Below, in pieces: positions 1,522-16,078 of a stretch of DNA of 64,000 nt. The stretch covers positions 128,001 through 192,000 of the forward strand of contig BK006947.3 of the NCBI GenBank assembly GCA_000146045.2. The letters are read 5' to 3'. Positions within the stretch are counted from its first letter, which is position 1. Every line of letters begins with the position of its first letter. The translations under genes and the position numbers were made by a program. This DNA comes from TPA_inf: Saccharomyces. Its lineage: Eukaryota. The notes beneath the pieces were generated by a model, which had not been told where the DNA came from, searched no databases, and saw nothing but the letters and a program-made list of their open reading frames with translations.

Positions 1522-4500
1522 TTATTTGAAACTTAGCCTGTTACCTGTGCTAGCCTCACCTATGGATCTTTCCTTGCGGGCCCTCAATTTTTCTAGATGT
1601 TCATCGAGTATGGAATTTTGCTTTACTGGTGTGTCAGAGCCTCTTAGCTCCTTTAATAACATTCTAGCTCTGTCACTAATTTCCTCTTGATCTTCCAGCG
1701 CAGATGTCTTGGATGGCGATGGTAAATCTTCAGAGGTATTCATAACACCCCTTGTGGCAAGCGGAGTGGGTGATTCAGCGTGAATCACTGTATCGGCAGT
1801 AGGGTCCATAGCTTCTGGAGAATAAAGAATAGACCCTTCTTCAGTATCCAAATCGTTGAGTAATTGTGGAGCGTTGTCTTTTTCAGAAAGATATTTTTTC
1901 CTCACTAGGGCTCTCTTTCTGGCGGAAGATGGGTCACTTTTAGCAGGACCTGCATTTTTCAACTGTTCTAATAGTTTATCCATAACAGCGCGCCTATCTT
2001 CTGCTTCATCCTCTTCATTTCCTTCAGATGAAGGCGAATTGCTGTTCTCTTTTTGTTTTTCCTTTTCTTGTGCCCTTTTTTGCTGTTCTTCCACTATTTT
2101 CTTATGCTTTATATAAAGTCTTTCTTCTTCTTCCGCGGCTAGATTTTGCGCTTGAGCTTTTTTGTATTCATTTATAAAATCTGCAAATTTCTTAAAGAAT
2201 GAGATTTTTGCAAACTTATCACCAGAATCTTCACCGTACGTATGCATCAGACTTTCAAATTCCATGATAGTCAGCTTAACTTCGTCTTCTAACAAGTCCC
2301 CCTTTTTTCTGGCTTCCGGTAACACGGGCAATGTTTTTATCAAAACTTTATCTAATGGATGAAACTTTGAGGAATCGCTTAAATTACCAATTTCAACTGA
2401 ACGCTCTACGTTTACAATCGATTGGCTAAAGTCCTTACAGTCGTTAACTAACTGCTCAATGGAAACTTTCACGACATCCAATACAGGTTCTAATTCACTT
2501 AGAAAGTCATTGAAGCTTGGATAATTTAACCTGACAATTTTTTCGACGTAATTTAGAAAGGTCATGCTATTGGTAGTATCCTTGATAAACGTCAACCTCT
2601 GCAAGGTTGAAAGTTTGAAACCTTGTGCCTGCTTAGAAGTGTCGTTCATGAAATTACCAACTGCTAAGATAACATTAAAGACATTGCGCAAGTTATCTGA
2701 TTCTTGAAGCGCGCTAACAGCTTTGTCGACTTTTCTTAACTTTGCCAATAACTCATTATATTCTCTTTCATACGAAGTAACCACTGTGAGAGCTCTCATA
2801 CGTGAACCCCAGTATGATTCTAGATTAACCATCAATTGCAAATAAATTTGGTCAGCCCTCTGTAAATCGTTTGGATCTTTTTCAGGGGGCTTGGCATCTT
2901 CGAGATTCCTCACGCCCTCCCAGTCTGTCGAATACGGGGCGTAATTCCTAGCTAAATTAACAGAAACTTCAATTATTTCAGATTTTGACAAAAACTCAAC
3001 AACACTCGGTGTTTGCAAAAAATCCCTATCGCAGTTTAGAATCTTTTTCACCAGATCGGCAACCGAAAGTGATGAATACATATGCAAATTGATACCAAAC
3101 TGTTGAGAAATATCCCTGGATAAAAATGTAATTTTCTGCAGATCTTCCTTGCGCTTGCTTGCTAATGATTTAATTTCCCTAGCGGCAAAGGCCTTTTCTA
3201 AATCAGCAAGAACACCCTTTTCGTATAAGTCATCTGCGAACTTCTCAGCTTTACCTGTACCCCAAATAGAATTATCAGTACAATCTAATTTTTCCCAATG
3301 CAGTTGCTTTAATTTCTTGTGTGGACGAGGATACTTTTCAAATAATGAGGGCGATTGAGGAAGTAATGGTGATGTTACAGCTGATTTGATTTGCGATGCC
3401 GGCATCATAGGTGGAGCTGGCGGAATGACGCCATCAGTAGATGAAGATAATACAGATGGTAGCGGCGGCGGTGGTGGTGTTTCTCCCTTGGGTTTGCCGA
3501 ACAATGCCATGGGTGGAGGAGGAGGTGGTGGTGGTGGAGGGGGAGGAGCAGGAGAATCCCCAGTAGTTTCTTGCTTGACAGTGTCGTCTTCCGACTTTTT
3601 CTCTTTCTCCAACGATTCACCGAACAATTTGGCGGGAACTGGAGGAGGAGGAGGAGGAGGCGGTGGCGGCTGTGAGGAGAGTACAGATGATTGAGTAGAG
3701 AGATCTTCTGCGCCATCTGTATTATTCAGTTTACTCACAGCGCTGAAATCCGCTGTTTTATCTTCTTCATGATTTACCACACGCCCTTGCTTTCCGTTTT
3801 CCACATGTTGTCTCATGTCTTTCTCAGCTTTGTCAAAGGCGGAAGCTGCACTTGCCGTGCTGTTTTCCGGTAAAGATTTTTTATCTAGACCTTCATCTTC
3901 ATTTTGTTCATATGGTTCAACTTTATTTACCTTCTGTGTTAACTCCTCTAAATATGGAGCAGAAGACACGGTGGATTTTCTGAGTCTGTTCATAAAGGTC
4001 TTTTCAACTTTACTATGTAGAGGTCCAATACCCGAACCGTTATTGTTCTCTCCAAAAGCAGCCGATGCAGTAACATTTTGACCAGTACCATATTTTTGAG
4101 ATAAGGCATCGAGAAAAGACCCAGGACCTGATCCTGAAGATAGCTCTGAGTGTTCGCTCCTTAGTTCTTGAGTTGGAGATGCGTCTTGGTATATTTCCTC
4201 ACTTTCATCATCAGAACTTGAAGAGGAAAGATCGCTTTCCCCATCTTCTTCTACTTGTATTTCGTGTTCGGTTTGAGTCTGAATATCTAACAACTGGTCC
4301 GTTATTCTATTAATCTCGTCTAACTTTTTCTGATATGTCTTAGGGTCAAGACTGGCATAGTTAGCGTCTTCTTCCGTTTCCACGTCCCCAGTATTTTTCT
4401 TTGGACTGTCCATAATCTCGTCGACATTAAAGTCAATACCAAATCCTTTGTATTTTGTTTCTAGTTCTTTCAGTCTCTTTAAAGCCAGAGATTTCTTTTC

Positions 4501-7383
4501 ATTAAATAGCTCATTAACACGTTCTTCGACGTTAAATTTGGAAATATCATTACTTTCCATTTGGATTTCAGCCAAAGCCCGCCTTAGGTCATTTAGTTTA
4601 TTTACGTCCGCCTCTTGAGGCTTGACTAAAGGTTTCCTATCCTTATTTTTCATCTTCTTCACTTTGGGCTTCTTAATATGTATTGGAGGTTCAAGACGAT
4701 CTTTCTCAAATTCAGCAAAATTTGTCATCTCTAGTTGCCTGGCTTCATTTTCAATATTTTCCATTTGCATTCTTAACATTTTTAATCTCTTATTAGGTTG
4801 AAGTGTCATGCCGAATTTTTTTGAATCATCCTTGTAATCCTTTTTTGCTCTTGATAATCCGTCCTGTAACACCTTTTGGATATTCGCTTTCTCTGAAGAA
4901 TTTAGGCTCGAGTTCATACCTCTGGTGCCTTCATTCTTATTGAAGCTTTCTTCAGGCCTCGAATTCAATATAGTCAACATTTTTCTCAATTCTACCTCTT
5001 GCTGATGCTTTTCCAAAAGATGCTTCTTTTTCAACTCTTCTAACTCAGCTTCCAGCTGCTGCATAACTCTCTGATTCTTAGCTAAAATACGATCTCTCTC
5101 ATGCAACTCATCTTCTAACTGTCCAACGAGTCCGTGCTCCGCCTTGCTTAACTTTTCACTTAAAGAATCCCTTTCTGCCTGAATTTCTTCCAATTTCTTC
5201 GTTAGAGCTCTACTTTCTAATATAGCTCGACGTGCAACTTCATCAGTCTGCATGGCATCGTAAAGCCGCTGGATAGCCATATTCATATTAGTTTCTTCAT
5301 CAGAAGTTGAGGCAACACTAACATTAGTCACCAAAGAATCCATAAGTTTCAATTGCTTAGTAAGTTTAGAGGAATTTTGGTTTTCTTCTATTAACTTTGA
5401 ACTAGAAAGGAAAAGATGTTGAACTAAAGATACTAAAAGCTTTTCATTCTCGGTACCTTTACATATATCCCAAAGGTTTTTTAATAATGATAGTGGATCG
5501 TGTAAATCTACATTAAAAGCCTTATTGTTGGCCTCTAATTTAACGTTAAAATCGTCAAGTTTATTATTGTCATATAACTCAATTTGGTCAATTACCTTGT
5601 CGTAATCTAGCAGTTTTATTTTGTTCATAATTCGTAAAATTCCACAATTTTCTAGTTTCGTCCTTAATAGCATTCTTTGATTTATGTTATCAGAGCAAGA
5701 GCATAAATGATTGATAAAAACCATTGTCCATTGGCAGTATTCTAGAATCGCATTTTCACCCCCACCATTTTTAAATTCATCCGACGCGCCTACTAAGGAA
5801 CCCATTTTTCCTCTTCCATCTAAAGTTTGTTCAACGGCAAATAACCAGGCTTGAATAATTTTCAAATGACTTTCCAAGGTTAAATGAGAGAAATACTGGG
5901 GCATTTTTTTGAAGTTTTGAATCATATGAAGATTTTGCCCTATCCTAAACTTTTTATCTAGTGAGGTAAGAACTGCTTCGAATCTGCTTTTATTTTTTTT
6001 TTCTAGCATACAAACAAAAATTTCAGTGGCCATTTTCCTTGTGGCCAGTTTCGTAGAGAATAAACCTTCTGCAACAGTATCAGTCATTAACCTATGTGTA
6101 CTGAACTCATACAAACCTTGTGAGAGCATTGATAAGACTCTGAAGCATTTAAAAAATGAATTTTCTTTCTCTAATAATTCTTTAGTCAAGTTTTCTCGGG
6201 GTGCAGTCTTATAAATAGAGTTCATTAGTACATTAGCCATAGCAATGTGACCCTGATGGTCTATAAAAGCGTCTACCCAGTCTAACTGTTCAGTTCTTAA
6301 AGTTACCCATAAATCTTTCATCTCATCGCTAGTAAGTTTGTCTGCCAGGATTCGTTGCACATAATGTATCGGTGGTCTGTTTGTTCTGTCTCCTGGAAGA
6401 GTAGATGCACTCGTATTGTTCTCAGCCCCACCTCTATAAATATTGTTTAGAGATGGCTGCTTTTTCAAACTCCCGCTCACTAATTTTTTCCCCTTCGAGG
6501 TTGACGTACCTACCGATGAAAGAGTAGTAGAATGATTTAAACTGTTGCTGTATACAGTTGAGGTGGGAGAAGAGGCGCTTGTCATCAAAACAGATTTGGG
6601 AGACGAAAGAGATGAATTAGCCGTAAGGATAGGATGATGGTCCGACGCCATCGAAGTTCTGGAGGCAGTGGAAGAAGATGTAGTGTTTGCTCGCATTTTT
6701 TTTAGCTCATTTTGTAAATCCTGCTTAACAATCAGCCATTTCTTCTCAATGCTGTAGCCCATCAGAGCTTCTTGTTTGTCCTCTGATAAAGACTGAAAAA
6801 TATTTCTTTTATACATAATATCTTCAAACAAAACTTCCACCTCGTATGGGTCCGACGGCATTTCTAAATAAATTTTACCATCGGGTGTAGTGAATTTGCT
6901 CAAGTTAGTTAGCGAACCTTGAGAGAGAAGACTTGATGCGGAGTGACTTTGCCCGGTATGCTGCCTTGTTAGCTTATTGGACGCCTGTGAAGAATTCCTC
7001 TTGGAATACGAATATTTCGATTGCATTGAATGCGACCTTGCGTGCTGTGAGGATACGGGAACATCTCCACTTAATTTACCATTCATATATTGAGACAAGT
7101 TTTGTGTGTTTAATGTCGATTTTTTATTCAACGGCCTCGCCTCAGTAGATGTAGACCTAGAAGGTGCATTCAGTTTTCTAAAAGATGACGAAGATGCAGG
7201 TGAAGTGGACACTTCGTTTCCCACTGGAGAGTGCTGTTGTTGGGATGCATAGGTCGGAGAACCCGTATTGCTATTCGTTGCATTTGAGTTAGCCAAACGC
7301 TTCAAATTTTGGAATATACCAGAACTCGAATTCGAATGACTTTCCTTTGAGTTCGAATGTTTGGAGCCTGAATTCTTCAACAT
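1522..7383 (-). CDS. BNI1: Formin Bni1 (1953 aa): FH3/DID, coiled coil, FH1 polyproline, FH2 actin-nucleation domain
   Basis: Single 5862-nt ORF with an ATG start (cat at 7381-7383). Long poly-Pro runs (PPPPPPPPPPPPVPAKLFG, APPPPPPPPPPPPMALFGKPK) mark the FH1 region and precede an FH2-type block. The 1953 aa length matches Bni1. Confidence 0.95.
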   Translation of the reverse strand: MLKNSGSKHSNSKESHSNSSSGIFQNLKRLANSNATNSNTGSPTYASQQQHSPVGNEVSTSPASSSSFRKLNAPSRSTSTEARPLNKKSTLNTQNLSQYMNGKLSGDVPVSSQHARSHSMQSKYSYSKRNSSQASNKLTRQHTGQSHSASSLLSQGSLTNLSKFTTPDGKIYLEMPSDPYEVEVLFEDIMYKRNIFQSLSEDKQEALMGYSIEKKWLIVKQDLQNELKKMRANTTSSSTASRTSMASDHHPILTANSSLSSPKSVLMTSASSPTSTVYSNSLNHSTTLSSVGTSTSKGKKLVSGSLKKQPSLNNIYRGGAENNTSASTLPGDRTNRPPIHYVQRILADKLTSDEMKDLWVTLRTEQLDWVDAFIDHQGHIAMANVLMNSIYKTAPRENLTKELLEKENSFFKCFRVLSMLSQGLYEFSTHRLMTDTVAEGLFSTKLATRKMATEIFVCMLEKKNKSRFEAVLTSLDKKFRIGQNLHMIQNFKKMPQYFSHLTLESHLKIIQAWLFAVEQTLDGRGKMGSLVGASDEFKNGGGENAILEYCQWTMVFINHLCSCSDNINQRMLLRTKLENCGILRIMNKIKLLDYDKVIDQIELYDNNKLDDFNVKLEANNKAFNVDLHDPLSLLKNLWDICKGTENEKLLVSLVQHLFLSSSKLIEENQNSSKLTKQLKLMDSLVTNVSVASTSDEETNMNMAIQRLYDAMQTDEVARRAILESRALTKKLEEIQAERDSLSEKLSKAEHGLVGQLEDELHERDRILAKNQRVMQQLEAELEELKKKHLLEKHQQEVELRKMLTILNSRPEESFNKNEGTRGMNSSLNSSEKANIQKVLQDGLSRAKKDYKDDSKKFGMTLQPNKRLKMLRMQMENIENEARQLEMTNFAEFEKDRLEPPIHIKKPKVKKMKNKDRKPLVKPQEADVNKLNDLRRALAEIQMESNDISKFNVEERVNELFNEKKSLALKRLKELETKYKGFGIDFNVDEIMDSPKKNTGDVETEEDANYASLDPKTYQKKLDEINRITDQLLDIQTQTEHEIQVEEDGESDLSSSSSDDESEEIYQDASPTQELRSEHSELSSGSGPGSFLDALSQKYGTGQNVTASAAFGENNNGSGIGPLHSKVEKTFMNRLRKSTVSSAPYLEELTQKVNKVEPYEQNEDEGLDKKSLPENSTASAASAFDKAEKDMRQHVENGKQGRVVNHEEDKTADFSAVSKLNNTDGAEDLSTQSSVLSSQPPPPPPPPPPVPAKLFGESLEKEKKSEDDTVKQETTGDSPAPPPPPPPPPPPPMALFGKPKGETPPPPPLPSVLSSSTDGVIPPAPPMMPASQIKSAVTSPLLPQSPSLFEKYPRPHKKLKQLHWEKLDCTDNSIWGTGKAEKFADDLYEKGVLADLEKAFAAREIKSLASKRKEDLQKITFLSRDISQQFGINLHMYSSLSVADLVKKILNCDRDFLQTPSVVEFLSKSEIIEVSVNLARNYAPYSTDWEGVRNLEDAKPPEKDPNDLQRADQIYLQLMVNLESYWGSRMRALTVVTSYEREYNELLAKLRKVDKAVSALQESDNLRNVFNVILAVGNFMNDTSKQAQGFKLSTLQRLTFIKDTTNSMTFLNYVEKIVRLNYPSFNDFLSELEPVLDVVKVSIEQLVNDCKDFSQSIVNVERSVEIGNLSDSSKFHPLDKVLIKTLPVLPEARKKGDLLEDEVKLTIMEFESLMHTYGEDSGDKFAKISFFKKFADFINEYKKAQAQNLAAEEEERLYIKHKKIVEEQQKRAQEKEKQKENSNSPSSEGNEEDEAEDRRAVMDKLLEQLKNAGPAKSDPSSARKRALVRKKYLSEKDNAPQLLNDLDTEEGSILYSPEAMDPTADTVIHAESPTPLATRGVMNTSEDLPSPSKTSALEDQEEISDRARMLLKELRGSDTPVKQNSILDEHLEKLRARKERSIGEASTGNRLSFK
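3400..3700 (-). repeat. Coding (CCN)n/(GGN)n low-complexity tract encoding the Bni1 FH1 polyproline stretches
   Basis: Plus strand shows ggtggaggaggaggtggtggtggtggagggggagg and ggaggaggaggaggaggaggcggtggcggc. The antisense ORFs 3386..3694 (poly-Gly) and 3405..3716 (His/Leu-rich) are artefacts of this repeat. Confidence 0.9.
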
Positions 7384-7870
7384 TTCCTTTCCTTCTCTTC
7401 CTTTCTTGCTTCTCGTTTGTTGAAAAGGTTCAGGTGCCTTCTTTATGTGGCGTGTATTTAGAATTTAACTAGGCTTGAGTTAAAATGTTTCTCCTCAATA
7501 CAGAAGATAGATACAAATGGCAAAAAAAAAAGTAAAAAATGGCCCAACTGTATGAGACGTATAAAAAACGTGAAGGGTGAAGAAAAGAATGCCACTGTCC
7601 AATTTTATGCTTAATACGAAAATAATTAACACACAGCCGTCAGTGTCCTCTTATCTGTAGGAAGGGTCCGTGCTATTGTTCTTAAAAGGGATTCTAGTTT
7701 TCCACATCTGTTTTTTCTTTCTTTCCCTCTTCCACGTCAAAAACTTCCTCTAACCGATGTCGGGTAAGCCATGGAAATTACGGGCGATGACTTTCGGCGG
7801 CTAACAACGAAACAACTAGGGAGTAATCATATAATCACAGGAAAAGAGTTGAGCAAGGATTTGGCAAATA

Positions 7871-7875
7871 TACAT

Positions 7876-7907
<32 letters not shown>

Positions 7908-7917
7908 GTGTGTGTGT
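7871..7917. repeat. Compound microsatellite (TACA)n-(TA)n-(TG)n in the BNI1 upstream / ALP1 downstream intergenic region
   Basis: tacatatacatacatacatacatacatacatatatatgtgtgtgtgtg read directly. The alternating purine-pyrimidine stretch has Z-DNA potential. Confidence 0.95.
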
Positions 7918-7939
7918 GGTATGGAGTATTATTCTAAAA

Positions 7940-9661
7940 TTATGAAAGGACATCCCAAACTCGTTGCCACCTTGTTTTACATTCTGGCTCTATCCATACC
8001 AACTCCTCTATTTGCCGGCGGTCAGAATCGATATCGATATCCTGCAGCTTCCAGAGTAAGCGGCACTTAAACCAAACTTGGAATGATAACCATATGGCCA
8101 AAAATAGGAATATTGATATATATGCAGCGACAAAGTCTATAGGCTGAAAAGTAGGTGCGAAAGCGGTGAAGCCCTGGATCAGAACAATTAGAGCGATGAA
8201 AAAAGATGCATAATATGCCAAAAAAGGCATCATTTGAGCTTTATAAGGTAAGTCATCCCTCGATATACCACGTTTCCTTATGGCTTGCATGAAACGGATA
8301 TGAGAAAATGAAATCAAAAGCCAGGCAAAGAAACCGGCCACACCAGTTATGTTCAATAACCAGTTAAAGGCCTTGCCGCTGCCTGCAGAAACCTCTAAGA
8401 AAGCCAAAAATCCGAACACGGATGTAGATAGAACAGAAAAGTATGGAACACCACCTCTGGTCACGTTAGACAAGAACCTTGGCGCCAAGCTATTTTTAGA
8501 CAGACTATACAGTACTCTTGAGCCAATGTACACATTAGAGTTACCTGCGGAAAGAATGGTGATTAGCACGACCGCGTTAAATATATCTGGGAGAACTTTT
8601 GTGCCTGAATTCTCAATGCTTATCATAAAGGGCGATGAAGAGACAAATATACCGTCACTATCCAACTTTGGGTCATTATATGGGACCAAAAGGCCAATGA
8701 AAAATAGTGAAAGAATGTAAAAGACTAGAATCCTCACTACAACTTTCTTTATTGCCCTCGGGAGAGCTTTTCTTGGGTTAGCCGCTTCACCAGCGGTTAT
8801 CCCAACCAGTTCAGTACCTTGGTACGTAAATGCAGCATTAATCAAAGAGGAAACCCATCCGAGAAAACGGCCCTCATTTTTATCACTGGAGATAATGCCA
8901 GGCCCCCAGGCTCCTGGATTTCTCCAGTACCTGAAACCGATGGGTCCATCAGATTGTCCCGCACCACACACAACACAGAATGAGAAAATGATAAAACCGA
9001 GCAACGCGATGACCTTTATGGAGGCAATACAAAACTCAAATTCTCCGTAATACTTTACGGGAAACATGTTCATTGAAGTTAACAGGCACCAAAAGATCAC
9101 GATCCAAGCCGCTAGAGGCACTGCTTCTGTCCAGTACTGAATAACTTTCCCCAAAACGGATAGTTCCAGTGCGAAGGTGAAACACCACGACAGCCAGTAC
9201 ATATATCCGTTAGTCGCTCCCAGCGCTGGCGACAGAAATCTTTGGGCGAAGACAGAAAATGAAGATGTAACCGGGATAAAAGTGACCATCTCTCCTAACG
9301 ATTGTGTAACGGAGTAAATCACTGTCCCCATAAATAAATACGATATCAAGGCACCAACAGGGCCGGCGTGTGCCAATGGCGGACCAATACCAATTATGAG
9401 GCCCGTCCCAATGGTGCCGCCGAGAGCAATCATCCCTATATGCCGCTGCTTTAACTTCCGCTTCACCTCTCTTCTTTCTTGTGGTGAGCTCTCTGTTTCC
9501 TTAGCAGCATCATCCTCGACTTTTCTCTCTGTGGTGATGGCCTTCGTAACGTTCTCCCCAGAATATTGTTCATCTACAAACTCCTCCTCTTTTATTATAG
9601 AGCTAGAATTGATTTCATACTGACCTTCCTTGGACATTTGTATGTTCACAGTTTCATCCAT
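7940..9661 (-). CDS. ALP1: Basic amino-acid (arginine) permease of the APC/YAT family, 573 aa, 12 TM helices
   Basis: 573-aa ORF with ATG start (cat 9659-9661). Permease signature [15 protein letters not shown]. Close paralog of the adjacent LYP1 and oriented divergently from it. Length and position next to BNI1 and LYP1 identify ALP1 rather than CAN1. Confidence 0.9.
8768..8940 (-). repeat. ALP1 copy of a ~173-nt near-identical segment shared with LYP1 (candidate gene-conversion tract)
   Basis: The reverse complement of 8768-8940 aligns to LYP1 11388-11559 with about 7 mismatches, while flanking coding sequence differs at most third-codon positions. Confidence 0.85.
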
Positions 9662-9698
9662 GGCAATAATCGCAACACTACAATTTTGCCGCTAATAT

Positions 9699-10094
9699 AT
9701 GTCTATTGTGCTACGGAAGAGTAACAAAAAAAACAAAAACTGCATAACAAGCAAGTTTTATACAATACACATTATAAAAATTTCTACTCCGGTGTTCCGA
9801 GCTCCCATTGCCATTGGAGAAAGCCCTTATGTGGAGTGGAGCTGCCTACAGGTTGTTTTCAGGAAAGACATGGTTACAAAAAAGACGACATTCGCCCAAC
9901 TTATCACTCGCTTGAACCACTTTTTATGCCAAGCCCTTAAACGCCGCGACTCAAAAACATACATACTGTGCCGCACGGCAGTTTTTGGCGCTATGACACC
10001 CTTTTCCCCAAGAAAATCGCATATTAACAACAAATTACCCATGCAACCCAGGAAAAAAAAAATAGTCATTATATACGTAGTGCGCTTTCATTGA
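9699..10094 (+). CDS. BSC4: BSC4, 131-aa S. cerevisiae-restricted de novo-originated ORF (bypass of stop codon 4); TGA stop in leaky TGA-C context
   Basis: ATG at 9699-9701 and ORF MSIVLRKSNKKNKN...VVRFH of 131 aa. It sits in the 888-bp gap between the divergent ALP1 and LYP1, exactly where YNL269W/BSC4 maps. Stop TGA at 10092-10094 is followed by C at 10095. The same frame stays open for 106 further codons to TAG at 10413-10415. Confidence 0.85.
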   Translation: MSIVLRKSNKKNKNCITSKFYTIHIIKISTPVFRAPIAIGESPYVEWSCLQVVFRKDMVTKKTTFAQLITRLNHFLCQALKRRDSKTYILCRTAVFGAMTPFSPRKSHINNKLPMQPRKKKIVIIYVVRFH

Positions 10095-10549
10095 CAACTA
10101 CATTTTTGTGCAACTTTTGGTACACCGCTACACGTATTGAAAGCGCAAAAGACTATAGCTCCTCCAGCAGGGAAAACTCACATCGGTGGGCAACAACATA
10201 GAATATGTCAAAGTTGTAAAAACACCCACGAGTGCATACCACTTTTCAACATTACCGGGGAAAAAAAAGTTTGCACCTCGTTCCCAGAAACATACGCAGG
10301 AGTGACTGCGCTAGTGACAGATTGCTCTTTCCGTTGGAAAAAGAAACGACTTTTTTTCGCAAAAGTACCCGAAATCCTCGGAATTTTGCAAATAGTCGAT
10401 GATCACAATTGTTAGGTGACTATTTAACAAGGACGGCGAGGAGAACTGAAAAAAAAGCAACCTATCCGGCCTCCTCTAGTTACACAAACAAGACAAAGAA
10501 ATTGCATTGTCTATAACGATAACAAAAGACATCGTATATATATATATAT

Positions 10550-12385
10550 ATGGGCAGGTTTAGTAACATAATAACGTCCAATAAATGGGACGAGAAACAA
10601 AACAACATTGGCGAACAGAGCATGCAGGAATTACCAGAAGACCAGATAGAACATGAGATGGAAGCAATAGATCCAAGTAATAAGACGACCCCATACTCTA
10701 TTGATGAGAAACAGTACAACACAAAAAAGAAGCATGGGTCATTGCAAGGTGGCGCAATTGCTGATGTAAATTCGATAACTAATTCGTTAACAAGATTGCA
10801 AGTTGTCTCTCATGAAACAGATATTAACGAGGATGAAGAAGAAGCCCACTATGAGGATAAACACGTGAAGAGAGCCTTGAAGCAAAGACACATTGGTATG
10901 ATTGCACTAGGTGGTACAATCGGTACTGGTCTTTTCGTTGGTATCTCCACTCCCTTGAGTAATGCTGGCCCTGTGGGGTCCCTGATTGCTTACATTTTCA
11001 TGGGCACCATTGTCTACTTCGTTACCCAGTCACTTGGTGAGATGGCTACGTTTATCCCCGTGACATCATCTATCACTGTCTTTTCGAAGAGGTTCTTATC
11101 ACCTGCATTCGGTGTTTCTAACGGCTACATGTACTGGTTCAATTGGGCTATTACTTATGCTGTGGAGGTTTCTGTCATTGGCCAAGTTATTGAATACTGG
11201 ACAGATAAAGTTCCATTAGCGGCCTGGATTGCGATATTCTGGGTAATTATTACTTTGATGAATTTTTTCCCTGTCAAAGTTTATGGTGAATTTGAGTTCT
11301 GGGTGGCCTCTGTTAAAGTTTTAGCCATTATGGGTTACTTGATATATGCTTTGATTATTGTCTGCGGTGGATCCCACCAGGGCCCTATCGGTTTCAGGTA
11401 CTGGAGAAATCCAGGAGCCTGGGGGCCAGGCATCATCTCCAGTGATAAAAGTGAAGGCCGTTTTCTCGGATGGGTCTCCTCCTTGATTAATGCTGCATTT
11501 ACGTACCAAGGTACTGAACTGGTTGGGATCACCGCTGGTGAAGCGGCTAACCCAAGAAAGACCGTTCCAAGAGCTATCAATAAAGTCGTCTTTAGAATCG
11601 TACTATTCTATATTATGTCTTTGTTCTTTATTGGTCTACTGGTTCCATACAACGATTCCCGTTTATCTGCTAGTTCTGCTGTTATTGCATCATCACCCTT
11701 CGTTATTTCCATTCAAAACGCTGGTACTTATGCTCTTCCAGATATTTTCAACGCCGTGGTGTTGATTACTGTTGTATCTGCCGCTAATTCGAATGTTTAC
11801 GTTGGTTCCCGTGTTCTTTACTCTTTAGCTAGGACTGGTAACGCACCAAAGCAATTTGGATACGTCACCAGACAGGGTGTTCCATATCTCGGTGTTGTTT
11901 GCACTGCTGCATTGGGTCTTTTGGCATTCCTGGTTGTCAATAACAATGCAAACACTGCATTTAACTGGTTGATCAACATTTCCACTTTGGCTGGGTTATG
12001 CGCCTGGTTATTCATCTCTTTGGCACATATTAGGTTCATGCAAGCTTTAAAGCACCGTGGTATTTCTCGTGATGATCTGCCCTTCAAGGCCAAATTGATG
12101 CCTTATGGTGCCTACTACGCAGCCTTTTTTGTCACCGTCATCATATTCATCCAAGGGTTCCAAGCGTTCTGTCCGTTCAAAGTTTCTGAGTTTTTCACAT
12201 CTTACATCTCCTTGATTCTTTTAGCCGTTGTGTTCATTGGTTGCCAGATATACTACAAATGCAGATTTATTTGGAAGCTAGAAGATATTGACATCGATTC
12301 CGACAGAAGAGAAATCGAAGCAATTATTTGGGAAGACGACGAGCCTAAGAATTTATGGGAGAAATTCTGGGCTGCTGTTGCATAG
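10550..12385 (+). CDS. LYP1: Lysine permease, APC/YAT family, 611 aa
   Basis: ATG at 10550 ([16 protein letters not shown]...). 611-aa ORF with 12 predicted TM segments and the [15 protein letters not shown] motif. Paralog of ALP1. Confidence 0.93.
11388..11559 (+). repeat. LYP1 copy of the ~172-nt segment ~96% identical to ALP1 8768-8940
   Basis: Encodes [57 protein letters not shown]. Synonymous sites are nearly identical to ALP1 only within this tract. Confidence 0.85.
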
Positions 12386-12877
12386 TCACAGAACCTCTTG
12401 CATGCCTTCAAAATAGAAAAAAATAAAAAAATAGACGTTTCATTAATCAAAATAGCCTGTAGAGATTTTGAGGGATTGCCCCAAACTTTATGTATAATAT
12501 CACCACTTATTATTCACTATTCATAGTATGTTACATCATAAGGCCATTGTCACCTTCGGCCAGCGATAGTACTCAAATCTATAATAAATTTTCCATATTA
12601 TCCTTTACGTACTTGATAGCGTGTATAACAGGGTCATTATTCACGATATGTTCAACTGTTGTCATTTTCGTGTTATTGCACTGAAACAAAAGAACCCTAC
12701 CAAAAAATTCGTTAGAGAAAAACTAAAAGTACAAGATCTTATACTGAAGACCCTTCATTTTTTAGGCCCAACTTCTATATTAAGAAGATCCCTGGACCCT
12801 GCTAGAAATTTTCAATTAGCTTATCATTTTTCTTCATTGCGAGCGTTCGTTTTCATTAAGCATTCGTTCTCTTCACT

Positions 12878-15800
12878 ATGCATAAAGCATCCAGTTCAAA
12901 GAAAAGCTTTGATGATACTATTGAACTAAAAAAAAATGAACAATTACTGAAACTGATCAACTCTAGTGAATTCACCCTTCACAATTGTGTGGAGTTACTG
13001 TGCAAACACTCCGAAAATATTGGTATACATTACTATTTATGTCAGAAATTGGCCACATTTCCTCACAGCGAACTACAGTTCTATATTCCCCAACTAGTAC
13101 AGGTCCTCGTCACCATGGAGACAGAATCAATGGCTTTAGAAGATTTACTATTAAGGTTGAGGGCGGAAAACCCTCATTTTGCACTACTGACGTTTTGGCA
13201 GTTACAAGCGTTACTAACGGATTTATCTACTGACCCCGCTTCTTATGGCTTCCAAGTGGCTAGAAGAGTCTTAAACAACTTACAAACCAATCTCTTTAAC
13301 ACAAGTTCAGGTAGCGATAAAAATGTTAAAATACATGAAAACGTTGCACCGGCCTTAGTTCTTTCCTCTATGATAATGTCGGCTATAGCATTCCCCCAAT
13401 TAAGCGAAGTGACCAAACCATTAGTGGAATCTCAAGGTAGAAGACAAAAAGCTTTCGTTTTTAAGTTGGCTAGAAGTGCAATGAAAGATTTTACCAAGAA
13501 CATGACCTTGAAAAATACCCTACTAAACAAGAAAACTTCCAGATCCAAAAGAGTTAGCTCAAATCGCAGTTCAACTCCGACTTCTCCAATAGATTTAATA
13601 GATCCAATAAAAACTAAAGAAGATGCATCCTTCAGGAAATCCAGACATAGTGAGGTAAAATTGGATTTCGACATTGTGGATGATATAGGTAACCAGGTCT
13701 TTGAAGAAAGAATCTCATCTTCAATCAAACTCCCAAAACGTAAACCTAAGTATTTGGATAATTCATACGTTCATAGGACATATGATGGCAAAAATATAAA
13801 CAGGGACGGAAGCATTTCAAATACCGCAAAGGCTCTCGATGGAAATAAAGGTGATTATATTTCTCCAAAGGGACGTAATGATGAAAATAATGAGATTGGT
13901 AACAATGAAGATGAAACTGGTGGTGAAACGGAGGAGGACGCGGACGCTTTAAACTCTGATCACTTCACCAGTTCTATGCCAGATCTGCATAATATTCAAC
14001 CAAGGACTTCTTCTGCTTCATCTGCTTCTTTAGAAGGGACACCTAAGTTAAACAGGACCAATTCCCAACCCCTTTCGCGCCAGGCATTCAAAAACAGTAA
14101 AAAAGCGAATTCTTCTTTGAGTCAAGAAATTGACTTGTCGCAATTATCGACCACTTCAAAAATAAAAATGTTAAAAGCAAATTATTTTCGTTGCGAGACA
14201 CAATTTGCCATTGCGCTAGAAACAATATCTCAAAGGCTAGCTCGAGTACCGACAGAAGCTAGATTGAGTGCCTTACGAGCCGAGTTGTTTCTATTAAACA
14301 GGGACCTACCAGCGGAAGTAGATATCCCCACTTTATTGCCTCCAAATAAAAAAGGAAAGTTACATAAATTAGTGACCATTACTGCTAATGAGGCACAAGT
14401 TTTGAACTCTGCAGAAAAAGTTCCATATTTACTCCTGATAGAATACTTGAGAGACGAATTTGATTTTGACCCAACAAGTGAAACCAATGAAAGATTATTA
14501 AAGAAGATCAGTGGTAATCAGGGAGGCTTGATATTTGATTTAAATTACATGAATAGAAAAGAAAACAACGAAAATAGAAATGAAAGTACTCTTACTAGCA
14601 ACAACACTCGATCTTCGGTATATGATAGTAACTCGTTCAACAACGGGGCCTCCCGCAATGAAGGTCTATCCAGTACCTCAAGAAGTGATTCAGCGTCCAC
14701 AGCTCATGTTAGGACTGAAGTCAATAAAGAGGAAGATTTAGGTGATATGTCAATGGTAAAAGTCAGGAACAGAACGGATGACGAAGCGTATAGAAATGCT
14801 TTAGTAATACAGAGTGCCGCAAATGTTCCAATTTTACCTGATGATAGTCAAGACAGAAGCCCAGAGTTGAACTTTGGCTCAAACTTGGACGAAGTACTCA
14901 TCGAGAATGGAATTAATAGCAAAAATATACATAGCCAAACTGACGCTTTAGCAGACCAGATGAGAGTTTCAGCTGTTATGTTAGCACAATTGGATAAGTC
15001 GCCACAACAGTTATCAGAAAGTACCAAACAAATCCGCGCTCAAATTATTTCATCAATGAAGGAGGTGCAGGATAAATTTGGTTACCATGATTTGGAAGCC
15101 CTTCATGGAATGGCAGGTGAGAGAAAATTGGAAAACGATTTAATGACGGGTGGTATTGACACTTCATATCTAGGTGAAGATTGGGCTACCAAGAAAGAGA
15201 GGATACGTAAAACTTCGGAATATGGCCATTTCGAAAACTGGGATTTATGTTCTGTAATCGCCAAGACGGGTGATGATTTGAGACAGGAGGCGTTTGCATA
15301 CCAGATGATTCAAGCGATGGCCAATATTTGGGTTAAAGAAAAAGTTGACGTTTGGGTTAAAAGAATGAAAATTTTAATTACTAGTGCGAATACGGGACTT
15401 GTGGAGACCATCACAAATGCTATGTCTGTGCATAGTATTAAAAAGGCTTTAACCAAAAAAATGATTGAAGATGCAGAACTAGATGACAAGGGTGGTATTG
15501 CCTCTTTGAATGATCACTTCCTTAGAGCTTTTGGTAATCCTAATGGATTTAAGTATAGAAGAGCACAAGACAACTTTGCTTCTTCGTTAGCCGCATATTC
15601 TGTCATTTGCTATCTCTTGCAGGTTAAAGATAGACACAACGGTAACATTATGATCGATAACGAAGGCCATGTAAGTCACATCGATTTTGGATTTATGCTA
15701 TCAAATTCACCCGGCTCAGTGGGCTTTGAGGCCGCACCATTCAAATTAACTTACGAATATATTGAACTGCTAGGCGGAGTAGAGGGAGAAGCGTTTAAAA

Positions 15801-16078
15801 AGTTTGTTGAACTAACTAAAAGTTCGTTCAAGGCTCTGAGAAAGTATGCTGATCAAATCGTATCAATGTGTGAGATTATGCAAAAGGACAATATGCAGCC
15901 TTGTTTCGATGCTGGCGAACAAACAAGTGTACAACTACGACAAAGGTTCCAATTGGACTTATCAGAAAAAGAAGTTGATGACTTCGTAGAAAATTTCTTG
16001 ATAGGTAAATCTTTGGGTAGTATTTACACCAGAATATACGACCAATTTCAACTTATTACACAGGGTATATATAGCTGA
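12878..16078 (+). CDS. PIK1: Phosphatidylinositol 4-kinase Pik1, 1066 aa, C-terminal PI3K/PI4K catalytic domain
   Basis: 1066-aa ORF with ATG at 12878. Lipid-kinase catalytic motifs (DRHNGNIMID, HIDFGFML) near the C-terminus; N-terminus MHKASSSKKSFDDTIELKK. Confidence 0.93.
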   Translation: MHKASSSKKSFDDTIELKKNEQLLKLINSSEFTLHNCVELLCKHSENIGIHYYLCQKLATFPHSELQFYIPQLVQVLVTMETESMALEDLLLRLRAENPHFALLTFWQLQALLTDLSTDPASYGFQVARRVLNNLQTNLFNTSSGSDKNVKIHENVAPALVLSSMIMSAIAFPQLSEVTKPLVESQGRRQKAFVFKLARSAMKDFTKNMTLKNTLLNKKTSRSKRVSSNRSSTPTSPIDLIDPIKTKEDASFRKSRHSEVKLDFDIVDDIGNQVFEERISSSIKLPKRKPKYLDNSYVHRTYDGKNINRDGSISNTAKALDGNKGDYISPKGRNDENNEIGNNEDETGGETEEDADALNSDHFTSSMPDLHNIQPRTSSASSASLEGTPKLNRTNSQPLSRQAFKNSKKANSSLSQEIDLSQLSTTSKIKMLKANYFRCETQFAIALETISQRLARVPTEARLSALRAELFLLNRDLPAEVDIPTLLPPNKKGKLHKLVTITANEAQVLNSAEKVPYLLLIEYLRDEFDFDPTSETNERLLKKISGNQGGLIFDLNYMNRKENNENRNESTLTSNNTRSSVYDSNSFNNGASRNEGLSSTSRSDSASTAHVRTEVNKEEDLGDMSMVKVRNRTDDEAYRNALVIQSAANVPILPDDSQDRSPELNFGSNLDEVLIENGINSKNIHSQTDALADQMRVSAVMLAQLDKSPQQLSESTKQIRAQIISSMKEVQDKFGYHDLEALHGMAGERKLENDLMTGGIDTSYLGEDWATKKERIRKTSEYGHFENWDLCSVIAKTGDDLRQEAFAYQMIQAMANIWVKEKVDVWVKRMKILITSANTGLVETITNAMSVHSIKKALTKKMIEDAELDDKGGIASLNDHFLRAFGNPNGFKYRRAQDNFASSLAAYSVICYLLQVKDRHNGNIMIDNEGHVSHIDFGFMLSNSPGSVGFEAAPFKLTYEYIELLGGVEGEAFKKFVELTKSSFKALRKYADQIVSMCEIMQKDNMQPCFDAGEQTSVQLRQRFQLDLSEKEVDDFVENFLIGKSLGSIYTRIYDQFQLITQGIYS

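Follow-up and report, generated by a model that had tools for sequence, protein, structure and literature searches.

How do two genes that have diverged over most of their length come to be nearly identical over 171 nucleotides (nt)? The question is raised by ALP1 and LYP1, two amino-acid permease genes of Saccharomyces cerevisiae that lie in a 64,000-nt stretch of contig BK006947.3 (assembly GCA_000146045.2, positions 128,001 to 192,000 of the forward strand). We refer to this stretch as the window, and coordinates are those of the window unless another genome is named. ALP1 (YNL270C) occupies positions 7940-9661 of the minus strand and encodes a basic amino-acid permease of 573 residues; LYP1 (YNL268W) occupies 10550-12385 of the plus strand and encodes a lysine permease of 611 residues, both as given in the list of open reading frames (ORFs). 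The two are ancient, divergently transcribed paralogs. A preliminary description of the window had read the near-identical block as the footprint of recent ectopic gene conversion between them. The comparison reported here indicates that the two copies, or arms, of the block very probably form a long-lived island of concerted evolution, homogenized repeatedly by non-crossover, non-allelic conversion between inverted copies 2.4-2.8 kilobases apart.

The shared block of ALP1 and LYP1 in S. cerevisiae

ALP1 and LYP1 were compared in a protein-guided codon alignment. The ALP1 arm (8771-8941, minus strand; codons 241-297) and the LYP1 arm (11387-11557, plus strand; codons 280-336) encode a 57-residue peptide and match at 164 of 171 nt. 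Of the seven mismatches, only one alters the protein, an Asn/Ser replacement; the other six are synonymous. The codon alignment thus confirmed the earlier count of about seven differences in a near-identical peptide with a single N/S site, and the tract limits proposed at that time (8768-8940 and 11388-11559) were off by no more than 1-3 nt. Beyond the tract, the aligned core matches at 793 of 1299 positions (61%). Where the two proteins share a degenerate amino acid, they use the same codon at 47 of 53 sites inside the tract, as against 82 of 275 outside (Fisher p = 5.7e-16), and in a maximal-segment permutation test the score observed for S. cerevisiae was reached in 0 of 20,000 shuffles. 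The edges of the tract are abrupt, with 9-10 differences within 18-24 nt past each end, a one-codon indel at the 5' edge and flanking sequence that is about 40% diverged. A repeat search returned the arms as inverted repeat I1 (8673-8947 and 11381-11655), which is 84% identical over 275 nt. A 15-residue region in the first transmembrane segment (TM1), offered by the preliminary description as an example of codon divergence, does use different codons almost throughout. The protein identity of 70-75% given there was too high; we obtained 61% by global alignment and 64% by local BLASTP.

The assignment of the genes as ALP1, LYP1 and, between them, BSC4 holds on the evidence of the ORFs and protein matches. 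By BLASTP the 573-residue protein matches S. cerevisiae entries named Alp1p at 100% identity, and it has matches to Pfam families PF00324/PF13520, and the 611-residue protein is an exact match to the S288C lysine permease Lyp1. On the APC fold, the tract would comprise the loop before TM6 together with the conserved 23-residue TM6 motif. LYP1 is homologous to the bacterial LysP structure 9eyd (E = 4e-99), and the part of LysP that aligns with the tract is highly conserved. The LYP1 arm is the homeologous region II (HER-II) of Schmidt et al. 2010.

Grouping by species across Saccharomyces

Loci containing both genes were taken from S. paradoxus, S. mikatae, S. kudriavzevii, S. arboricola, S. 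uvarum, S. eubayanus and the S. cerevisiae strain YJM1447. With Nakaseomyces glabratus, Naumovozyma dairenensis and Torulaspora globosa, 11 genomes were compared in all: seven Saccharomyces species, YJM1447 and these three. One ENA contig, which encodes an ALP1-like protein of 79% identity, was left unused, since its 2,265 bp leave no room for a neighboring LYP1.

The block is present in every Saccharomyces species. Within the 171-nt tract the paralogs differ at 7 positions in S. cerevisiae (4 in YJM1447), 4 in S. paradoxus, 10 in S. mikatae, 11 in S. kudriavzevii, 10 in S. arboricola, 5 in S. uvarum and 10 in S. eubayanus, whereas outside the tract they differ at about 38% of nucleotides in every one of them. 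The maximal segment always falls at alignment columns 324-384, and its score was reached in 0 of 3000 permutations in each of the seven species. The proportion of synonymous codons that differ between the paralogs of one species is 0.07-0.19 in the tract and 0.61-0.71 outside it. Orthologs behave in the ordinary way: between S. cerevisiae and S. paradoxus synonymous divergence is 0.23 in the tract versus 0.25-0.29 outside, and between S. cerevisiae and S. mikatae it is 0.40-0.44 in the tract versus 0.39-0.42 outside.

Neighbor-joining trees (300 bootstraps) were built for the tract and for each 57-codon flank. In the tract tree the paralog pairs of S. paradoxus, S. mikatae, S. kudriavzevii and S. 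arboricola were each recovered in 283-300 of 300 replicates, the S. cerevisiae group in 283 and a group of S. uvarum plus S. eubayanus in 238; monophyly of ALP1 or of LYP1 was recovered in none. Both flank trees gave the opposite result, grouping by gene in 297-300 of 300 replicates and by species in 0. The same division is seen site by site. Shared-derived nucleotides, that is, those private to one species (or to S. uvarum plus S. eubayanus) and present in both paralogs, number 21 in the 171-nt tract and 10 in the 1,245 nt outside, while fixed differences between ALP1 and LYP1 number 0 and 129, respectively. Whether the tract would group by species or by gene was the check that the preliminary description had proposed for ectopic conversion, and its core inference passes, the tract grouping by species and the flanks by gene.

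In each species, the ratio of in-tract paralog divergence to the divergence from the nearest species sampled is 0.32-0.76, and in S. cerevisiae the paralogs have about half of the S. cerevisiae-S. paradoxus divergence; the last homogenization is therefore moderately old rather than very recent. A rival account is a single conversion with no later exchange, which could have happened recently in S. cerevisiae or long ago in the Saccharomyces ancestor. For S. cerevisiae taken alone, the count of 7 differences in 171 nt would agree with one such event of moderately recent date. However, the island is found in all seven species, the two genes of one species are closer to each other, by a factor of 2-3, than orthologs of the nearest species are, and the tract tree, like the 21 lineage-specific substitutions carried by both paralogs, follows the species. 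One ancestral event also predicts a paralog divergence at least as great as the deepest ortholog divergence (about 0.4-0.5), and the observed values lie well below this. These results exclude a single event, which we consider extremely improbable. Of the earlier proposal, conversion between the inverted paralogs stands, as the tract groups by species, but the notion of one recent event does not, given an island with the same edges in seven species.

On this comparative evidence we regard recurrent, lineage-specific homogenization, active since at least the Saccharomyces common ancestor, as established. Judged from the same alignments, so is independent homogenization in at least six lineages, namely S. 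cerevisiae, S. paradoxus, S. mikatae, S. kudriavzevii, S. arboricola and S. uvarum/S. eubayanus (on their stem or at the tips). In the seven species the arms are 2,445-2,758 nt apart and contain uninterrupted identity blocks of 47-161 nt. The residual differences cluster toward the edges of the tract, at different places in different species, as expected if conversions within one island have variable endpoints.

The only replacement in the tract bears on whether exchange continues today. LYP1 has Ser at codon 301 (window 11450) and ALP1 has Asn at codon 262 (window 8877). Most S. cerevisiae LYP1 alleles carry Ser301, with the ALP1-type Asn in YJM1447 and in cluster member P0165; most ALP1 alleles carry Asn262, with the LYP1-type Ser in P0125. 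This suggests that the products of exchange in both directions are still segregating in S. cerevisiae. Ser301 is also found in LYP1 of S. mikatae, S. eubayanus and T. globosa, while LYP1 of S. paradoxus, S. kudriavzevii, S. arboricola and S. uvarum has the ALP1-type Asn. Apart from the P0125 allele, Ser at this site was not found in ALP1 of the 11 genomes compared, nor in CAN1, a related permease gene. The site may thus be a paralog-specific residue that conversion repeatedly erases. A bolder version, in which conversion and selection are still at odds within the island, with Ser301 of LYP1 overwritten again and again by the ALP1-type Asn and P0125 representing a reverse transfer, is one that we put forward as doubtful. 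If Ser301 matters for lysine transport, the locus would provide a natural segregating system in which the rate, tract length and direction of conversion could be set against purifying selection.

The YJM1447 locus is unusual in its own right. Its LYP1 (3260-5095 of that sequence, minus strand) differs from the window at 60 of 1836 nt (3.3%), its ALP1 at only 1.1%, and the haplotype could be deeply diverged or introgressed. A cluster of four differences that separates YJM1447 LYP1 from that of the window was considered as a sign of very recent intraspecific conversion and was found not to be decisive; since YJM1447 LYP1 is so diverged overall, four differences in 32 nt are only mildly unusual.

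CAN1 and outgroup pairs as controls

A near-identical block could in principle be held in place without any exchange of DNA, by purifying selection on the nucleotides themselves (codon choice and translation speed, the structure of the mRNA, or an RNA or regulatory element lying within the block), and the extreme conservation of the peptide in all family members speaks for such a constraint. As a control we used S. cerevisiae CAN1, the whole-genome-duplication sister of ALP1, which lies on another chromosome. CAN1 encodes nearly the same peptide but does so with other codons: it differs from both ALP1 and LYP1 at 38 of 171 nt (22%), and its synonymous codons in the tract differ at 29 of 51 sites from ALP1 and at 27 of 50 from LYP1. 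The codons common to ALP1 and LYP1 in the tract include many rare ones (AGG, GGG, ACG, CTG, GCG, CTC). No island was found at the tract position in the syntenic pairs of N. dairenensis (42 differences) or T. globosa (40 differences), which encode the conserved half of the peptide with ordinary divergence. Further, the tract is not invariant across strains and species, its synonymous sites diverge between species at the rate of the rest of the genes, and an Rfam scan of 7800-12500 at E <= 1 returned no family match in either arm. Nucleotide constraint was the alternative that the preliminary description had named as able to overturn conversion. It is excluded by the normal between-species synonymous divergence of the tract together with the divergence of CAN1, and we leave it almost no probability.

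Two narrower candidates were also rejected. Convergence through codon bias fails because many of the shared codons are rare and because CAN1 uses other codons for the same residues; an embedded RNA element was dropped on the blank Rfam scan of both arms. In the same region, a (CATA)n/(TA)n/(TG)n microsatellite at 7868-7935, directly downstream of the ALP1 stop codon, gives spurious sub-threshold Rfam matches resembling microRNAs (27-29 bits, versus gathering scores of 75-100).

The third outgroup, N. glabratus, is marginal, with 26 differences in the tract and a score reached in 75 of 3000 permutations for the last 17 codons. Its ALP1 (6001-7719 of that locus, plus strand) and LYP1 (3065-4858, minus strand) are 85% identical over the tract, with one mismatch in the last 18 codons. 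In the loop both paralogs carry residues specific to this lineage, NPGAMG in place of NPGAWG and GEA in place of NEG. The N. glabratus tract may reflect older or weaker conversion at the same site.

In T. globosa a different part of the pair is alike. Between its ALP1/CAN1-like gene (6001-7788 of that locus, plus strand) and LYP1 (3748-5460, minus strand) there is a block of about 150 nt with about 91% identity at alignment columns 152-179. It lies over a 35-residue TM1 segment, includes more than 40 uninterrupted identical nucleotides and was matched in 2 of 3000 permutations, in this one species only. From its sequence the block has the look of a conversion island that arose independently in another lineage, where Schmidt et al. 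place HER-I.

Proposed mechanism of exchange and its consequences for the locus

The block and its capacity to recombine have been described before, in a different context. Schmidt et al. (2010, PLoS One 5:e12007; PMC2918500) defined HER-II, shared by CAN1, LYP1 and ALP1, as a region of 173 bp, 96% identical between LYP1 and ALP1 and 78% identical to CAN1, whose LYP1 and ALP1 arms are inverted relative to each other at a distance of 2,445 bp. Our computed spacing, 2,445 nt, equals the published value. In sgs1 mec3 cells, break-induced replication begun in LYP1 switches template to ALP1 within HER-II and gives rise to CAN1/LYP1/ALP1 translocations (PMC2918500), an experimental result that independently supports exchange between the arms. 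That paper deals with the same DNA as the island but treats it only as a recombination substrate in sgs1 mec3 mutants, and the terms 'gene conversion', 'evolution' and 'paralog' never occur in its text. Our literature search found no evolutionary treatment of the block's origin and turned up recombination papers of the Schmidt laboratory and a review that treats the pair as an inverted tandem duplication; subscription-journal surveys such as Drouin 2002 were outside its scope, and an earlier mention is possible. The block and its recombination are therefore already published, and what is added here is the genus-wide comparative evidence for concerted evolution.

Recurrent conversion could proceed as follows. 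When one arm suffers a break or a stalled fork, the other arm, on the same or the sister chromatid, would serve as the template for repair through strand invasion or template switching, and synthesis-dependent strand annealing would then copy tens of nucleotides up to about 170 nt without a crossover. The best explanation for the fixed edges is that heteroduplex extension would be blocked by the roughly 40% divergence of the flanks and by the 5' indel, through mismatch-repair and Sgs1 anti-recombination, and that longer tracts would import paralog-specific residues and be selected against. Because the same peptide is present in both proteins and at most one residue changes, exchange inside the island has almost no selective effect. 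Every event rebuilds the long stretches of identity on which the next one depends, and in this way the island sustains itself.

Several points weigh against this account. GC content at third codon positions (GC3) is not raised in the tract (0.40-0.61, versus 0.43-0.68 outside, with no consistent excess), so that conversion has left no GC-biased trace; a GC-biased conversion footprint was considered and, without the GC3 excess, rejected. In yeast, efficient mitotic recombination calls for more homology than 171 nt. The rate of conversion must consequently be low, which agrees with the accumulation of 4-11 differences. The fixed-edge explanation, a mismatch barrier combined with selection, is something that we infer. 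All evidence for the process in wild-type cells is comparative, the experimental template switching having accompanied break-induced replication in sgs1 mec3 mutants and not in wild type. When the same seven differing nucleotides were changed in LYP1 so that the block became 100% identical, the rate of translocation in that assay did not increase (PMC2918500); homology length may thus not be rate-limiting, at least there. Finally, the evidence that conversions are segregating in S. cerevisiae is at the protein level and from the DNA of one strain, YJM1447, in which LYP1 is unusually diverged.

The preliminary description had also pointed out that recombination between the arms would invert the interval that holds BSC4. 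This interval (8942-11386; 2,445 nt) comprises the 5' 720 nt of ALP1, an 888-nt divergent promoter region with BSC4 and the 5' 837 nt of LYP1. A crossover between the arms would indeed flip BSC4, and it would also swap the promoters and 5' halves of ALP1 and LYP1 to produce two chimeric permeases, but no such inversion is fixed in the 11 genomes examined. On the ALP1 side the window has BNI1 (1522-7383, minus strand) and on the LYP1 side PIK1 (12878-16078, plus strand). The arrangement PIK1-LYP1-ALP1-BNI1 is kept as far out as Torulaspora, and no inversion or chimera was seen in the 11 genomes, in which gene order and orientations are constant. Nor were recombined 5' and 3' gene halves found, the flanks on both sides of the tract grouping by gene. 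Crossover products, both the inversion and the reciprocal ALP1/LYP1 chimeras, would presumably be removed by selection.

Conversion might be real and the island nonetheless favored, either because homogenization of TM6 is beneficial or because the repeat is kept as a substrate for an occasional inversion that rewires the promoters and 5' halves and flips BSC4. The genus-wide persistence of identical edges and the ability of the repeats to recombine would agree with this. On the other hand, CAN1 and the outgroup pairs keep the peptide without exchange, which shows that homogenization is unneeded for function; the constant gene order gives no sign of the inversion; and a neutral, self-sustaining island suffices without a selected benefit. 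We consider a favored island very unlikely.

BSC4 itself (9699-10094, plus strand; 131 residues in the ORF list) lies within the inter-arm interval and is a bystander, with no part in the conversion mechanism. A review (PMC5499181) places it in the LYP1-ALP1 intergene and calls the permease pair an inverted tandem duplication. BSC4 DNA is recognizable in the S. paradoxus intergene (80% over 272 nt) and weakly so in those of S. mikatae, S. uvarum and S. eubayanus. The 131-codon ORF is absent from the intergenes of the other species compared, which fits its published de novo origin. The BSC4 region of YJM1447 is about 90% identical to that of the window, with indels, and its frame is shortened to 80 residues; the gene is apparently not intact in every strain of S. 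cerevisiae.

Stalled forks are known to undergo intrachromosomal template switching between short inverted repeats that lie a few kilobases from each other on one chromosome arm (Paek et al. 2009, as cited in PMC2918500). In the events described there, fusion of nearby inverted repeats yields dicentric or acentric chromosomes or inversions; the ALP1/LYP1 footprint, in contrast, is one of non-crossover copying that left gene order and orientation unchanged. The island is an unusually clean case of a known phenomenon, not a new kind, and it changes no general principle. Concerted evolution of yeast paralogs is well known from ohnolog pairs of ribosomal-protein and histone genes and from the ohnologs TEF1/TEF2 and SSB1/SSB2. 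Conversion between yeast paralogs has reportedly been treated by Gao & Innan, Sugino & Innan, Takuno & Innan, Evangelisti & Conant, Casola et al. and Ji et al. These ohnolog pairs share with ALP1/LYP1 the grouping by species, the locally very low synonymous divergence between paralogs and the normal divergence between orthologs. They are mostly dispersed, however, with most of the coding sequence homogenized and small islands of maintained difference. ALP1 and LYP1 show the reverse pattern: saturated, functionally distinct, linked and inverted paralogs with one 171-nt island of identity between fixed edges.

HER-II is a workhorse substrate in yeast genome-instability assays based on CAN1/LYP1/ALP1 translocations, and its 96% identity is, on our reading, a product of recurrent wild-type recombination between the arms and not a leftover of duplication. 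The island is compact and bounded and comes with its own controls, namely CAN1 as a non-participating, unlinked ohnolog, outgroup pairs free of the island and a T. globosa island elsewhere in the genes; it could be used to test models of homology-limited, self-sustaining conversion. It also calls for caution in dating events or building trees from these permease genes. Recurrent conversion ties the template switching seen in the laboratory in a mutant background to a natural process that has spanned the radiation of the genus.

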